Assembly: GCA_000146045.2 (NCBI GenBank)
Contig: BK006937.2
Coordinates: 1 to 64,000 of the forward strand
Reading direction: 5' to 3'
DNA from: TPA_inf: Saccharomyces
Lineage: Eukaryota
DNA length: 64,000 bases
In this document: in pieces, positions 631 through 30,700 of the stretch
Position numbering within the stretch: position 1 is the first letter of the stretch
How the letters are laid out: each line of letters opens with the position of its first letter
Made by a program: the position numbers and the translations under genes
Notes under the pieces: generated by a model
Database searches by the model: none
Told to the model about the DNA's origin: nothing
Seen by the model: only the letters and a program-made list of their open reading frames with translations

Positions 631-1100
631 TCTACAAATGATCGTAAATAATACACATATACTTATCCTACCACTCTAATCCCACTACCACATGCCATAC
701 TCACCTTCACTTGTATTCTGATCGGTCATACGCACACGGATGCTACAGTATATACCATCTCAAACTTACCCTACTTTCATATTCCACTCCATCACCCATC
801 TCTCACCATCAGTACCAAATGCACTCGCATCATTATGCACGGCACTTGCCTCAGCGGTCTATACCCTGTGCCATTTACGCATAACGCCCATCATTATCCA
901 CATTTTAATATCTATATCTCATTCGGCGACACCAAATATTGTATAACTGCCCTTAATACATACGTTATACCACTTTTACACCATATACTAACCACTCAAT
1001 TTATACACACTTATGTCAATATAACCACAAAATCACCACTAAAATCACCTAAACATAAAAATATTCTACTCTTCAACAATAATACATAAACACACTCAAT
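631..1100. repeat. X element core with ARS consensus and putative Abf1 site
   Basis: An 11/11 ACS match, TAAACATAAAA on the + strand (reverse complement TTTTATGTTTA), lies at 1050-1060. A match to the Abf1 consensus RTCRYNNNNNACG (ATCATTATGCACG) lies at 829-841. Both sit directly proximal to telomere repeats, as in core X. Confidence 0.5.
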
Positions 1101-4322: not shown

Positions 4323-6199
4323 TATCCCACGATAAAAAAAATACCTTGACTCAAGTGCCGAAACAGGAAATAATGAAAGATTTCATACAAGGTTGTTTCT
4401 AAGGTGCTATATGTCCCTACGGCCTCGTTTAGCCCCATCTCGCATGCAATACCGTAACATAGGTATATACACACAGAGAAGTAGTAATTTTACGTGTCTT
4501 ATACTTATTTTATATAGAAATGTCCGACACTTGCGCTACACTAAGGCATATAAGATAGATCTTAATTCCTTGTATTAACATATAAACAGACAACATAACA
4601 TAGCCAGTTTATCTTACTTATCTTTTCCTGGAAGAGATGGCATTATTTGTGTGTATCAAAGAGGCCTTTTTCAATTTTCATTTTAATATTTTTTTAATAT
4701 TCTTATATTGAACACATTTTTCTCCCCTAGATTTATGTTTCCTATTGCTCTCCATATCACATTATATCTATGAATGAATATGCATTGCTCTTCTGATACT
4801 ATGGTATGAGAGGCCTTGGTAAAGGGCATCGATAACCGAAAGAATCATCCGCAGAGAAGTAGAATCTTAGAGCATATCGTCTCGTTGAGACCGTATAGAT
4901 TCGCAAAAATAACAGAAACTTGCGTTAACATTGAATTTCAAACTCAGTTTTCCATAATTAACTGTTAAAAAAGGCTACTATAAGGGTGTCAATTACTGTT
5001 CTGTTTCGCAGGATTAATTCCGTTATGTGCTCTTGTAATTGAGTTAGCGCTTCTTATATCTCTTCAGTAATGCAGCAGTAATAAAACACATTGGCTTCGC
5101 TTTCGCTTTTTTTCCAAATCATTATCGAAGATTCTTTGCTTATGATATACTGGTGCTCGAGGATGATGAGAGGACACAACTTTTTGAGGCTTATCGTTAT
5201 CGTCTGAGTCACAACAACATACATTAACTGTCCACGATTCAGGGATGTGCTATGAGTTCAATTTTCGCTGTAGTGCTGCCATTGGCGCTGCTACTGGTGT
5301 CTGGAAAAACTCCACAGCTTTCAATGGAGATGTGACTGCACGAGTGAGACATTATCTGTATTAGCTTCACAACCATACTCTGTTAGTAAGGAGCCATAGT
5401 CGACATCTGTCCAGCTCAATCGGGTATGATATTTGATATCCCCAAAATACATGGCTGTACCATGTAAAATGAGCGGTATATCGAAGATCAGTATATTTCA
5501 GCCTATACAGGATCCTACTATTTCAACAAAAATGATTTCATCAAAATTAAATCACGCTGCAACATTGGTGAAGAATCTCAAAAGGTTAGTAACATCAATA
5601 TATCGCGGAGTAGCTATCATTGTGGCAGTTAACTTAAAGGATATACAGTTAATTCAACAAGATTTTCAAGTCCATTTTTTTTGGGCACGCTGAACACGCT
5701 CAATGTAGTACTTGTTTTGGAAATCACTCGCAAGTTTAATGGGACGAATTATATCAGTAATGTGTAAATTCCGACACAATGTTCGGTTAGTAGATTTACT
5801 GCTGGATTATTGGGTTCACCCGTAGACTGTTGCCGACTCCAAGAAAACTATGATCTCAATACAGGCATAAAGAATTGTTGTATCTGTGCCCATGTGATCT
5901 GTACCTTTTTTGCGGTACCAAAATCGCATGTTGCACTCACACTACGGAACACATCAACTTGTAACGACAACAATACAAAATACCAGGAGACATATCACTT
6001 TTTTTCGCCTAGAATGATTTACAATGGCATACACTTAGAAAAGTGCTATGACATGACGCCCTTACTAGAAGTTACATGATTCTCCTTTTTTTTCTTTCTT
6101 TCTTTCTTTTTCGGTACAACATAATTAATGCATTCATACAGAGCGCATTTCCAGCATCATTTATTGGATAGTAACTCCTCCCGCACTTTCAATATCAAT

Positions 6200-11082: not shown

Positions 11083-11234
11083 CGCAGTTATTTTCTTATT
11101 TTCATTTTATTTTTTTCGCCTTTTATACAGACTTCAACACAATCAGAATCAAATAGGTGTATCGCAATGGAATGTAATTTCTTAAGTATTCTATATGTAC
11201 TTAAAACCTATTAATATATGGATCAACACAGTAT

Positions 11235-11270
11235 CTTATGAATGGGTTTTTGATTTTTTTATGTTTTTTT
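11235..11270. promoter_or_regulatory. Candidate HML-E silencer core: ACS (ARS301-like) plus degenerate Rap1-like site
   Basis: An 11/11 ACS match TTTTATGTTTT lies at 11257-11267. About 10 bp upstream, on the minus strand, AACCCATTCATAA is a 10/13 match to the Rap1 consensus ACACCCAYACAYY. The assignment is by position relative to HML. Confidence 0.45.
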
Positions 11271-11502
11271 AAAACATTAAAGTTTTCGGCACGGACTTAT
11301 TTGGAATTCAAATTATTAATGAAAGAACAATTAACTAATTAATGTACTTAGTATTTGGCCATTATTATCGATTTCGGGGGCCAAATCTAACCAAATTCAA
11401 CCTACATTTTTTCAAATTGATTCAAACACCTTTCACAATAAGATTTTTATATCTAGCGCACATAGAATGAAATGTAAACAAAGATTTCAGAAAAATCGTC
11501 AT

Positions 11503-12285
11503 TCAAACTTGTATTAGACGAGGGACGGAGTGATTTTTGTGTTTGTTTTTATTAATTGTGGGATAGGATAGTAGCAACTCTTGGAGGAGAGCATTGTCAG
11601 TTGTCCAGTCTCTGAAGTTAAGTAGTAAGTTTGCGGAGTCAAAGGGGGATGGCTTTTGCCATTTGTGAGAGTTGTGCGGCAGCATCTTATTCAAATAGAG
11701 CTGTATTCTGAAGACCTCTTGTAGAACATCATCCATACTAAAAAGTAAATCGTCCTGTCCCATTACGAGCTGTAGTAGTGCTGTGACCCTCTGTATATTT
11801 ACGTTGCCATGAAGAAGGTAATGGGCGATATTTTGATACAATTCCTGAGTTGCATGTTGGATTGAGTTTACGAAGGGTCGCCAGACGGCCAGAAACCTCC
11901 AGGCGGAGTTAACAACTAGTAATACGGCATCCATGTTTGCATCAGCGCCGAGCCTATACCAGTCACTGAGTAGACGTTTTCTTGCTCTTTTTATGTCCTG
12001 ACTTCTTTTGACGAGGGGGCATTCTCTAGAGACACAGGCAGTTGCTTCCAGCAACTGCCGTACGGCCGTTCTCATGCTGTCGAGGATTTTTTTTGGGACG
12101 ATATTGTCATTATAGGGCAGTGTGTGACTTATGAATTGTTGTAGAAGGACGTCTGTGATGTTGGAGATATGTATTTTGTTAACTCTTCTTGAGACAATTT
12201 GGCCCTGGATAGCGAAGCGTGCGGTTACAAATAGGTCGTCTTGTTCAAGAAGGTAGGCGAGGACATTATCTATCAGTACAAACAT
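11503..12285 (-). CDS. BUD5-related ORF lying in the W/X homology region shared with MAT-proximal sequence (YCL068C-type)
   Basis: 260 aa from the internal Met MFVLIDNVLAYLLEQDD. The track ORF is longer (303 aa). It is recognised as the HML-proximal partial duplicate of the gene that flanks MAT. Confidence 0.6.
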   Translation of the reverse strand: MFVLIDNVLAYLLEQDDLFVTARFAIQGQIVSRRVNKIHISNITDVLLQQFISHTLPYNDNIVPKKILDSMRTAVRQLLEATACVSRECPLVKRSQDIKRARKRLLSDWYRLGADANMDAVLLVVNSAWRFLAVWRPFVNSIQHATQELYQNIAHYLLHGNVNIQRVTALLQLVMGQDDLLFSMDDVLQEVFRIQLYLNKMLPHNSHKWQKPSPFDSANLLLNFRDWTTDNALLQELLLSYPTINKNKHKNHSVPRLIQV

Positions 12286-12385
12286 CTTAGTAGTGTCTGA
12301 GGAGAGGGTTGATTGTTTATGTATTTTTGCGAAATATATATATATATATATTCTACACAGATATATACATATTTGTTTTTCGGGC

Positions 12386-13018
12386 TCATTCTTTCTTCTT
12401 TGCCAGAGGCTCACCGCTCAAGAGGTCCGCTAATTCTGGAGCGATTGTTATTGTTTTTTCTTTTCTTCTTCTATTCGAAACCCAGTTTTTGATTTGAATG
12501 CGAGATAAACTGGTATTCTTCATTAGATTCTCTAGGCCCTTGGTATCTAGATATGGGTTCTCGATGTTCTTTGCAAACCAACTTTCTAGTATTCGGACAT
12601 TTTCTTTTGTAAACCGGTGTCCTCTGTAAGGTTTAGTACTTTTGTTTATCATATCTTGAGTTACCACATTAAATACCAACCCATCCGCCGATTTATTTTT
12701 CTGTGTAAGTTGATAATTACTTCTATCGTTTTCTATGCTGCGCATTTCTTTGAGTAATACAGTAATGGTAGTAGTGAGTTGAGATGTTGTTTGCAACAAC
12801 TTCTTCTCCTCATCACTAATCTTACGGTTTTTGTTGGCCCTAGATAAGAATCCTAATATATCCCTTAATTCAACTTCTTCTTCTGTTGTTACACTCTCTG
12901 GTAACTTAGGTAAATTACAGCAAATAGAAAAGAGCTTTTTATTTATGTCTAGTATGCTGGATTTAAACTCATCTGTGATTTGTGGATTTAAAAGGTCTTT
13001 AATGGGTATTTTATTCAT
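12386..13018 (-). CDS. HMLALPHA2: Silenced copy of the alpha2 homeodomain repressor
   Basis: 210 aa, [13 protein letters not shown]...; homeodomain [42 protein letters not shown]. Confidence 0.95.
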
Positions 13019-13281
13019 TTTTTCTTGCTTATCTTCCTTTTTTTCTTGCCCACTTCTAAGCTGATTTCAATCTCTCCTTTATATATATTTTTAAGTTCCA
13101 ACATTTTATGTTTCAAAACATTAATGATGTCTGGGTTTTGTTTGGGATGCAATTTATTGCTTCCCAATGTAGAAAAGTACATCATATGAAACAACTTAAA
13201 CTCTTAACTACTTCTTTTAACCTTCACTTTTTATGAAATGTATCAACCATATATAATAACTTAATAGACGACATTCACAAT

Positions 13282-13809
13282 ATGTTTACTTCGAAGCCTG
13301 CTTTCAAAATTAAGAACAAAGCATCCAAATCATACAGAAACACAGCGGTTTCAAAAAAGCTGAAAGAAAAACGTCTAGCTGAGCATGTGAGGCCAAGCTG
13401 CTTCAATATTATTCGACCACTCAAGAAAGATATCCAGATTCCTGTTCCTTCCTCTCGATTTTTAAATAAAATCCAAATTCACAGGATAGCGTCTGGAAGT
13501 CAAAATACTCAGTTTCGACAGTTCAATAAGACATCTATAAAATCTTCAAAGAAATATTTAAACTCATTTATGGCTTTTAGAGCATATTACTCACAGTTTG
13601 GCTCCGGTGTAAAACAAAATGTCTTGTCTTCTCTGCTCGCTGAAGAATGGCACGCGGACAAAATGCAGCACGGAATATGGGACTACTTCGCGCAACAGTA
13701 TAATTTTATAAACCCTGGTTTTGGTTTTGTAGAGTGGTTGACGAATAATTATGCTGAAGTACGTGGTGACGGATATTGGGAAGATGTGTTTGTACATTTG
13801 GCCTTATAG
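13282..13809 (+). CDS. HMLALPHA1: Silenced copy of the alpha1 transcriptional co-activator
   Basis: 175 aa, MFTSKPAFKIKNK.... It is divergent from alpha2 with a 263 bp shared promoter region. The HO site lies within its 3' part. Confidence 0.95.
   Translation: MFTSKPAFKIKNKASKSYRNTAVSKKLKEKRLAEHVRPSCFNIIRPLKKDIQIPVPSSRFLNKIQIHRIASGSQNTQFRQFNKTSIKSSKKYLNSFMAFRAYYSQFGSGVKQNVLSSLLAEEWHADKMQHGIWDYFAQQYNFINPGFGFVEWLTNNYAEVRGDGYWEDVFVHLAL
13691..13718 (+). other. HO endonuclease recognition site at the Yalpha/Z1 junction
   Basis: The sequence CGCAACAGTATAATTTTATAAACCCTGG is the canonical MAT-alpha HO site. Confidence 0.85.
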
Positions 13810-14119
13810 AGTGTGGTCGTGGCGGAGGTTGTTTATCTTTCGAGTACTGAATGTTGTCAGTATAGCTATCCTATTTGAAACTCCCCATCGTCTTGCTCTT
13901 GTTCCCAATGTTTGTTTATACACTCATATGGCTATACCCTTATCTACTTGCCTCTTTTGTTTATGTCTATGTATTTGTATAAAATATGATATTACTCAGA
14001 CTCAAGCAAACAATCAAAGAAATCTTTCACTGCTCTTTTCTGTGTTCCATTTAGTTTTTAGTACGATTGCATTGTCTATATACTGTATTTACCAAATCTT
14101 AATTTTAGTCAAACATTAA
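13751..14119 (+). CDS. Dubious ORF overlapping the alpha1 3' end and the Z region (YCL065W-type)
   Basis: 122 aa with Cys/Leu-rich low complexity. It overlaps a real gene and silencer-proximal DNA and is probably not a gene. Confidence 0.2.
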   Translation: MLKYVVTDIGKMCLYIWPYRVWSWRRLFIFRVLNVVSIAILFETPHRLALVPNVCLYTHMAIPLSTCLFCLCLCICIKYDITQTQANNQRNLSLLFSVFHLVFSTIALSIYCIYQILILVKH

Positions 14120-14599
14120 TGTTTACTTTCGTATTTAAGGATGTGTATACTAAGCCTTGGGAAAATGCGTGTTCCTTGTGCCATCCGAAAGCTACTTCAT
14201 AAAAAAGATACTGTTCATTTTCAAGCCCGCATAGTTGGATCAAATATTAACTATATATCAACATGGTCCAAAGATCGTAAGTTTGGTCTAATGTTGTTTT
14301 AGCAAAAAAAAATACTATACCTTTCATTAACGTTTATTGAATTTCTTGAAAAAAAAACCCTAAATTATTATAAAATTATAGCAGGATAGTTCTTAGTGGA
14401 AGATATTAAGCAAACTATTTTCTGAATTGCTATGCGAAATTTCTCTAATGCCAGCTGAGTAACTAACTCTCATGGTACATAAAAATACGCATCTTAAAAA
14501 ATTTGATATTTCATGATTTATTTATAGAAATAACGATGCTTATTGTGCTTTGTTGGGTGTTTGACTTCTATGTTAACTTACTTCAACATGAAAGCCCGA

Positions 14600-14711
14600 C
14601 GTTTGCAATGATATCCTCTTTTTCACCCGATTATTTTCATTTATTAGTAAGTGGGGTTCTGGGTGAAAAAATCAAAACAAAAATATGAATTTGTAATGAT
14701 TTTTATATTTT
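14600..14711. promoter_or_regulatory. Candidate HML-I silencer: Abf1 consensus match plus ACS (ARS302-like)
   Basis: CGTTTGCAATGAT at 14600-14612 matches CGTNNNNNRYGAY. TTTTATATTTT at 14701-14711 is an 11/11 ACS match. Both lie at the expected distal edge of HML. Confidence 0.45.
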
Positions 14712-15797
14712 CGCCGGAGGTGCTGGAAATGGCAAACGAAAATACTATGACATAAAAGCTGGGCACACTATGTACGTTCTTTTTAATTTTTTATCAACAT
14801 GAGAAAAATTCATGAACACTGTACCTTATATTATCTAATAAATGAAGTAAGCTTTGCATCTCCGTAACAGCTGCATATATATAATTAAGCGGGAGCTTTC
14901 TTTCGATCTCTTTCATTCCATATGTTTATTATGTACTGATGAAAAGCATTTTACTAAGTTGAGGTCTCTGTAAGTATATTGTGACCATTATGCTAAAATA
15001 CTGGGGTCTTCATTTGTGTCAAATTCTACGTAATAGTTCCCCTTTTTCTTACATTTTTATACTAAAGAGTTACGGTATTTATACAAACGAGGGGCTTTAC
15101 TGTAATATATGATTAAGATTCAAGCTGAAACATTCTAAGTTAGAGGTATAAAATGATTATTGATGAAAGAGCTGCAAATGTCGGCAAAATATAAATACCT
15201 TAGATGTTACCAGCTGGGAAGATTATTACGGAACACATTCTTATAAATCTATAGGAATACATAGGATTGTATTTCTATTGACAAAGTACAACCTATATTT
15301 TATGTTATGTTATGTTATGTTTGCTATGACTATAGTTGCTTTTCTTCACTTAGTAAGGATTAACTAACTCTCGAGCTAGTAAATTTGACGTGAGAAGCAT
15401 AATTATATTACTAATAGAACGATATCTGGTGTGTTTTATTACAGACTGCACTGAGTGTTAGAGGTAGAAATTATAAGTTAAAAAGCAGTAGTTTATGCTT
15501 TATGCTCGAGTATCAAGTGAATTTGAACAGGCTAGTGCTTCATTGGTACTTCTTTCATGGATAATTTTGAGCAAATTTCTGCAGCATGTCCCCCTTTATA
15601 CAAATTCTGTGCATTGCCGGCCTAGAAATATGTCAACGTTTTGGATATGTTGATGCTTACTTCGAGAAATCTTACACTAATACTTCTGGAAAAAATCAAT
15701 ACTAGCAAAATAGTGATATATGAGTAAAATGTATGTAGTACATGTATGAAAATTATCAAGGGCAAATTGATGCTTCAACGAAAAAGTTATTGGATTT

Positions 15798-28999: not shown

Positions 29000-30700
29000 A
29001 TAATTTTGCATTTTATTTTACTGGAAACTCTTCTCAAAACCAAATTGCGCAAGGATTGATTCAGTACAATTATGCAAACTCGAAAAGTAAATAAACAAAA
29101 AGATACAGTTGAGTGAAAGGTAAATAAACATTATTCTACTTGATTTTCCTCTGTTTTTTCCATTTTTCTTTTTTGTCTTTTCGTGTTCTAGCGTGTTCAC
29201 TTTTTCAGCCATGTAATTACTTAAATAGGAAGTTTACACGATGTTCTCGCATAAAAAGCTGGAAGTGCAGAACAAAGAGGAAGAAAATAGGAACAGAGAA
29301 TTTGTTTGTTTATTTGTTTGTTTGCTTGTTTGTTTGTTTGTTTTGATTTGAAGTCGAGGTACTTATTCGAAATAATTATTTTGCCCAGGGTTTTGGATAG
29401 TTTTTTGTTTTCCAATTAGATTTTTAGAAATATTTTATCATAGTTTTTTGTTTATTTATTTGTTTATTTATTTGTTGATTTGTTTATTTATTTGTTGGTT
29501 TGTTTATTTAAGTTTGTAAATGTTTAATAAACAAAACAATATTTGCAAGCCATTGAAAACTTTGTAAATTTGTTTGAGAATTTACGAAACAATGAAAATT
29601 AAGGACTCTTTGATGGTGAACGAATTACTACTTTGCAGCAGGTAATTCTCTAAAACTCAGAAACAAGGCATGTATTTTTCACTAGGAAAAAGAAGGAAAA
29701 TGGGACTACAGTATTAGGGAAACAGGATTAAAATTCGTAGGTAATAATAACCCATACTTTCATTGTAGCAGTACTTTCGTTAATAAAATGGATATTGTTG
29801 TACTTCGGTAGATGTTATATTCTAAAGAGTTAAATTATCCAATTCCAAATTCTAGGGACGGTTTCCAAAGATTTGTATTGTCCAGTGACATAATTTTCAC
29901 TAAAACATTGATCTGTTTAATAGGTTTGCTATAAATGCACAATAATTTTTCACCCATGATACCCAATTTCAAGAGAAGCAATTGCTACATATAATTATTT
30001 AGGCTTTACTATCTACTACTCATTGACTGTGCCCTTTTACACAATTATAACAAATATGTCAAAGCAGATGCCATGAACTTTGTATCTGAATTTTTGATTT
30101 CCTTTTAATTCTAATTGCAGACGACGTAAATATAGTTCTGAATTTCAAAGTCACTGTTAATTAATTGTTCTAATTGTTTGGTTTTTTTAATATAAATCAC
30201 TAGTGCTTAAGTTCTGTTGACGCACACAGTACCTATCTTTGATTCCTTCGTGCAAACAGTATTCCGGCACGTTAATTGATACCAAAAAGATTTCAAAATC
30301 AGATGCTTCAAGACTAATTGTATACTTTATGTGACTTCTGGAGTTTAATTTGTTGTATTGATGAGATAATATTGTCTATTATATTGCCAATAACAACCAG
30401 CGCCAGGTGTACTAAGTCGAGATGACAGAAAATTTATAATAAGTGTAAATACAATAAATTTTGTAAATAAATAACTACTTCAATAGAAATCTCAAAGTCG
30501 AAGAAACACAGAACACAGAATGAAACTGGACTAAATGATTTTCAATAAAGGAAAAGCACGAAAAATTTTTTGAACTTTTTTGGGACAGCGTGGATCGTGT
30601 AATTACTGTATTGGGAAATTTACACGATTCTCGACAAATAAAGAAAAAGGCGCGTTTAAAGACTTACAAGCACACCTTTGAATTATTTTTGTTCTCTATG
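29000..30700. promoter_or_regulatory. Recombination enhancer (RE) region of mating-type switching, with two alpha2-Mcm1 operators and Fkh1-site arrays
   Basis: Operator 1 (29210-29240) is CATGTAATTACTTAAATAGGAAGTTTACACG. Operator 2 (30596-30626) is CGTGTAATTACTGTATTGGGAAATTTACACG. TTT(G/A) arrays lie at 29284-29345 and 29440-29515 and contain RYMAAYA forkhead motifs. It lies in the KAR4-SPB1 intergenic region. Confidence 0.8.

Follow-up and report, generated by a model that had tools for sequence, protein, structure and literature searches.

The α mating-type cassette close to the left end of a 64-kb stretch of Saccharomyces chromosome III is HMLα, a silent donor locus

The stretch analyzed here (positions 1 to 64,000 of Saccharomyces contig BK006937.2, referred to as the window) carries an α mating-type cassette at 11146–14849 that is, to near certainty, HMLα, the silent donor cassette on the left arm in the three-cassette mating-type system of Saccharomyces cerevisiae. 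Nothing in the sequence contradicts this assignment. The locus is a textbook one, among the most closely studied in biology, that has been described in full before, and the present analysis adds nothing new to it. Telomere repeats (C1–3A) occupy positions 1–360, and the cassette lies 11–15 kb away from them. The published E-to-I extent of HML, 11,146–14,849, is the same interval that an earlier note, made from the letters of the window, had given for a complete silent α cassette, and a published HML-E deletion (chrIII 11187–11409; PMC3001064) and the oligonucleotides that flank it fall at identical numbers in the window. The agreement of these published numbers with those of the window indicates that the window is chromosome III's left end in reference coordinates. 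Every feature described in the earlier note is present where the note had put it, and the corrections to its reading are small.

The exact α1 protein is also encoded in five other assemblies, each of which has it in two contexts on one chromosome. The subtelomeric context consists of an MFS transporter, an open reading frame (ORF) of 260 residues, α2, α1, a PALP enzyme, and Vac17; the mid-chromosome context consists of a RasGEF protein of 642 residues, α2, α1, and TAF2. Subtelomeric copies align to the window throughout, whereas the mid-chromosome copies, which are MATα, align only over 11509–14017. Divergence from MAT sets in at 11508 on one side and at 14018 on the other, confirming that the flanks of the cassette near the left telomere are not those of MAT. 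With a telomere 11–15 kb off, 2,509 bp in common with MATα, and different flanking genes, the proposal of a complete α cassette at 11146–14849 is borne out. The word "silent" does not stand as a reading of the sequence, however, and rests instead on the Sir chromatin immunoprecipitation (ChIP) data and the genetics published for these coordinates.

Because MAT itself lies outside the window, the borders of the cassette blocks were set by alignment to MATα and HMRa loci of other assemblies, and the alignment to MAT that the earlier note had proposed, together with that to HMRa, defines all of the borders of W, X, Yα, Z1, and Z2. The HMRa loci (L012–L016), which were looked up via the a2 protein (identical to residues 92–210 of α2), served for the X/Y and Y/Z1 borders. 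MATα shares 11509–14017 with the window, exactly 2,509 bp at about 99.7% identity; HMRa shares 12239–12943 and 13691–13929. Block W (11509–12238, 730 bp) is common to MAT only and extends from the base at which MATα homology begins to the base before HMRa homology begins at 12239. Block X (12239–12943, 705 bp) is common to MAT and HMR and is 99.7–100% identical to the five HMRa loci. Yα (12944–13690, 747 bp), which is present in MATα, fills the gap between the two segments, X and Z1, that align with HMRa. Block Z1 (13691–13929, 239 bp) is again common to MAT and HMR, the alignment with HMRa collapsing past 13929, and Z2 (13930–14017, 88 bp) is common to MAT only and ends where MATα homology stops at 14017. 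The lengths of Yα, Z1, and Z2 (747, 239, and 88 bp) agree with the classical ones.

One candidate MATa locus (L011, from GCA_029989845.1) was dropped from the comparison. Its Y region, at about 5000–5800 of the MAT locus, is 739 bp long, is 79% identical to Yα, has Ya-like ends, and contains only broken ORFs. This region is probably a consensus assembled from mixed MATa and MATα reads rather than a real allele.

Both α genes are full length. The silent copy of α2, the homeodomain repressor, occupies 12386–13018 on the minus strand (210-residue ORF; Pfam Homeodomain, E = 4.7e-9), and the silent copy of α1 occupies 13282–13809 on the plus strand (175-residue ORF; Pfam MATalpha_HMGbox, E = 1e-13). 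The exact α1 protein is found at both HML and MAT of other assemblies, and α2 at MAT has the same length and position. The earlier claim of two full-length genes with a shared divergent promoter is thus supported by intact ORFs and Pfam domains. A further ORF of 122 residues (13751–14119, plus strand) overlaps the 3′ end of α1, continues across Z1 and Z2, and extends past them into HML-specific DNA; Pfam finds no domain in it, and it seems to have arisen by chance.

The divergent promoter between α1 and α2 is 263 bp long. It contains the only match in the window (0.05 expected) to TGTNNWNANNTACATCA, which we take to be the consensus of the a1-α2 (haploid-specific-gene) operator and by which 13168–13184 on the plus strand was assigned. 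It also contains a Rap1 site, AAACCCAGACATC, at 13126–13138 on the minus strand, the window's sole exact match to ACCCANNCAYY outside the telomere repeats. ChIP followed by sequencing (ChIP-seq) has shown Rap1 bound at the HML promoter even when the locus is silent (PMC10556627).

The part of the HO endonuclease site that lies in Z1, CGCAACAGTATAATTTTATAAACCCTGG, occupies 13691–13718 on the plus strand and starts at the Yα/Z1 junction, with the first base of Z1. This 28-mer occurs once in the 64 kb, inside α1, and shuffled sequence gave no match to it even at three mismatches. It is identical in MATα and HMRa and invariant in five strains. From 50 bp upstream of the Y/Z1 junction to about 40 bp past it, the window is identical to MATα, and HMRa differs on the Y side only. 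HO recognition also needs the last few bases of Yα. The HO site placed at 13691–13718 by the earlier note is therefore present, intact, and unique, but the 28-mer is only the Z1 side and not the whole recognition site. In the literature, HML is protected from HO, and sir mutants let HO cut it.

The HML-E silencer can be placed to the base by means of published oligonucleotides. Weber and Ehrenhofer-Murray found that a 79-bp core suffices for HML silencing (PMC3001064), and the native part of that fragment corresponds to 11230–11303 on the plus strand, with an exact match to the wild-type oligonucleotide (PMC3001064). Within this core, the span altered in the rap1− mutant oligonucleotide is the Rap1 site AAACCCATTCAT at 11238–11249 (minus strand; invariant in five strains), that altered in the acs− mutant is the exact autonomously replicating sequence (ARS) consensus sequence (ACS) TTTTATGTTTT at 11257–11267 (plus strand), the site of the origin recognition complex (ORC) at ARS301, and that altered in the D2− mutant is the Sum1-binding D2 element TTTTCGGCACGGAC at 11283–11296 (plus strand). 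In a scrambled minimal version of HML-E, silencing and Sir3 recruitment were lost when the Rap1 site, the ACS, or D2 was mutated, and all three elements are reported to be essential in this minimal silencer (PMC3001064). The HML-E candidates of the earlier note, the ACS at 11257–11267 and a Rap1 site, are therefore bases that were mutated in the minimal silencer, but the essential D2/Sum1 element had been omitted. A scan of the window with the strict Rap1 pattern ACCCANNCAYY returned the telomere repeats and the promoter site only and missed the validated HML-E site. We also used a Rap1 core, AACCCANNCA, derived from three validated sites; the HML-E site is among only six non-telomeric matches to this core in the window.

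For the HML-I silencer (ARS302), the reference is the HpaI–HindIII fragment that the Bi laboratory used as HML-I and that has silencer activity. With HpaI at 14572 and HindIII at 14849, it corresponds to 14575–14849, or 275 bp. The fragment contains a single match to the Abf1 consensus RTCRYN5ACG, ATCATTGCAAACG, at 14600–14612 on the minus strand and a single exact ACS, TTTTATATTTT, at 14701–14711 on the plus strand, and both are invariant in five strains. By chance, 275 bp would be expected to hold about 0.012 exact ACS and about 0.03 Abf1 matches. According to the literature, each of the two I silencers carries an ACS together with an Abf1 site. Being the sole exact consensus matches in the fragment, 14600–14612 and 14701–14711 make strong candidates for the Abf1 and ORC sites of HML-I, as the earlier note had proposed. 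The Rap1 core AACCCANNCA has no match in the fragment at up to one mismatch, although the same search finds the E and promoter sites. Bondra and Rine (2023) reported a Rap1 site and a ChIP-seq peak at HML-I and found that Rap1 occupancy at the silencers drops in sir4Δ. A Rap1 signal at HML-I without a motif would be consistent with Rap1 being captured there indirectly, in a Sir-dependent manner, rather than binding directly. About 340 bp farther right than the HML-I fragment, a third exact ACS was observed (15186–15196, minus strand), which is probably part of a group of inactive origins clustered beside HML-I (ARS302/303).

It could be argued that the ACS, Abf1, and Rap1 matches have arisen by chance in AT-rich DNA and that the true silencer elements lie at other offsets. 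Several observations weigh against our placement of the elements and in favor of this alternative. Exact matches to the ACS and to the Abf1 consensus occur often, with 8 and 14 in the 64 kb against 2.9 and 7 expected, and short motifs alone are weak evidence; the Abf1 match at 14600–14612, for instance, is unremarkable by itself. The literature describes several near-ACS matches around the HM loci, and base-level mutagenesis of HML-I was found in none of the publications examined, the assignment of its elements here being by consensus match. All eight named elements are invariant across HML of the five other strains, but with only two to five variant sites per silencer region this invariance has little power. 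On the other hand, three of the eight exact ACS in the window fall within 4 kb around the cassette. None of the proposed silencer motifs falls within the DNA that the cassette has in common with MAT, a condition that silencers must satisfy. For HML-E, the chance explanation is excluded, as the mutations that inactivate the silencer span exactly 11238–11249, 11257–11267, and 11283–11296, and for HML-I it is unlikely, as an active fragment of 275 bp contains no exact match to either consensus besides these two. Overall, we consider it very improbable that the silencer elements lie elsewhere.

With the E and I elements at these positions, silencing of the cassette can be described in the terms established in the literature for the same coordinates. 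In that account, ORC, Rap1, and Sum1 at HML-E, together with ORC and Abf1 at HML-I, first bring in Sir1, after which Sir2/3/4 are recruited. The resulting Sir complex deacetylates histone H4 lysine 16 (H4K16) and spreads over the cassette, such that α1 and α2 stay untranscribed and the HO site uncut. Published Sir ChIP-seq at HML has peaks at both silencers and at the Yα/Z1 border, and H4K16 is uniformly hypoacetylated. The Sir profile, which the earlier note had named as a check on its silencer candidates, thus agrees with silencers at both ends of 11,146–14,849. Peaks of Rap1 have been reported at HML E, the promoter, and I (PMC10556627), and ORC signal has been reported at ARS301 and ARS302/303.

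As a donor, HML would be expected to act in the established manner: after an HO cut at MATa, the Z1 side of the break would invade HML, Yα would be copied, and resolution would take place in X/W. The choice of HML in a cells would be driven by the recombination enhancer, which the literature places about 17 kb from HML. The window contains two matches to the α2-Mcm1 operator, at 29212–29238 and 30598–30624, each with one to two mismatches in 27 bases and with none expected by chance. Their location, about 15 kb to the right of HML-I, fits the recombination enhancer that serves HML donor choice in MATa cells.

Alongside the α genes, the cassette carries the 260-residue ORF (11503–12285, minus strand), a truncated duplicate of BUD5 that is 99.2% identical to residues 35–294 of the 642-residue RasGEF protein at MAT. 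A Pfam search of the ORF found no domain, the RasGEF domain being absent. The ORF stops one codon outside W on the left and spans all of W and 47 bp of X. The earlier description of this ORF as a partial BUD5 duplicate rather than an independent gene holds; as a landmark, however, it marks W rather than W/X. Based on established knowledge of the locus, the ORF would represent the 5′ part of BUD5, a gene that at MAT extends into W/X and so came along with the cassette. One might suppose instead that it is a functional gene in its own right and not a passive fragment, as it is intact, has its own ATG, and is open in HML of all five other strains. We regard this as highly unlikely. The protein equals residues 35–294 of BUD5 at 99.2% without the RasGEF domain, its end is fixed by the W boundary plus one codon, and it sits in a Sir-bound, H4K16-hypoacetylated domain. 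The intactness of the ORF is accounted for by gene conversion with the BUD5 copy at MAT, which is under selection.

Two further observations are signs that gene conversion between the cassettes is ongoing. First, HML and MAT of a single strain differ by only 1–15 substitutions over 2.5 kb. Second, the length of a (TA)n tract in X (12335–12351) is concordant between HML and MAT in five of five strains, and HMR agrees as well in the one strain in which all three could be compared. The tract is 17 nt long in the window and 15 or 17 nt long among strains. In the 15-nt allele, the ATG that overlaps the α2 stop codon (ATGA, 12386–12389) shares the BUD5 reading frame, and the protein, lengthened by 34 residues at its N terminus, reaches 642 residues. 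In the 17-nt allele of the window, this upstream ATG is out of frame with BUD5, and the 34-residue extension is lost. At both of the MAT loci whose tract is 17 nt long (L005 and L009), a recorded gene call for BUD5 is lacking. The tract might be a frame toggle for BUD5. Because its length is concordant across cassettes, silent cassettes could store an N-terminal variant of BUD5 and reintroduce it at MAT during switching; we consider this idea unlikely and offer it as speculation.

Outside of the tract, the window differs from HML of all five other strains compared at 11775, 12196, 14139, 14191, 14356, and 14631. These six substitutions could be private alleles of the strain from which the window derives, or they could reflect a shared lineage of the other five. 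At the end of the window, positions 1–1100 comprise the telomere repeat and, next to it, an X-element-like stretch in which an Abf1 consensus match lies at 829–841 and an exact ACS at 1050–1060 (minus strand). The chromosome ends here, and these are its subtelomeric sites of the protosilencer type. Searches of the whole 64-kb window for tRNA genes and Rfam families returned neither.

HML is one of the founding models in research on heterochromatin and silencers as well as on programmed gene conversion and the choice of donor, and naming it correctly matters for annotation. The value of the locus here is that of a positive control, as a reader with nothing but the sequence correctly placed the parts of a complex locus to the base.

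Comparison with the other members of the three-cassette system delimits the assignment. The W–Z2 blocks, both α genes, the Rap1-dependent promoter, and the HO site of the window are about 99.7% identical to those of expressed MATα, and these 2.5 kb alone cannot discriminate between the two loci, but the possibility that the cassette is MATα can be dismissed, as the flanks depart from MAT right outside 11509–14017, the neighbors are an MFS transporter and a PALP enzyme rather than full-length RasGEF and TAF2 genes, telomere repeats are 11 kb away, BUD5 is cut off at the W edge, and the published HML-E and HML-I DNA is present in the flanks. Unlike the HMLα locus described here, MATα lies in mid-chromosome between full-length BUD5 and TAF2 and has neither an E nor an I silencer; it is transcribed, and HO cuts it. 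HMRa has X and Z1 in common with the window and has the same layout, a cassette set between two silencers, E and I, that carry sites for ORC, Rap1, and Abf1. It carries Ya (642 bp) rather than Yα, however, and lacks W and Z2, and its silencers are not the same in sequence or makeup: HMR-E has an ACS, a Rap1 site, and an Abf1 site, whereas HML-E has a Rap1 site, an ACS, and the D2/Sum1 element. With respect to the known HML, the features that set the window apart are the 17-nt (TA)n allele in X and the six substitutions absent from the five strains, and these are differences of no substance. In its blocks, genes, silencer elements, and coordinates, the cassette is identical to HML of S. cerevisiae, with HML-E at ARS301 and HML-I at ARS302.

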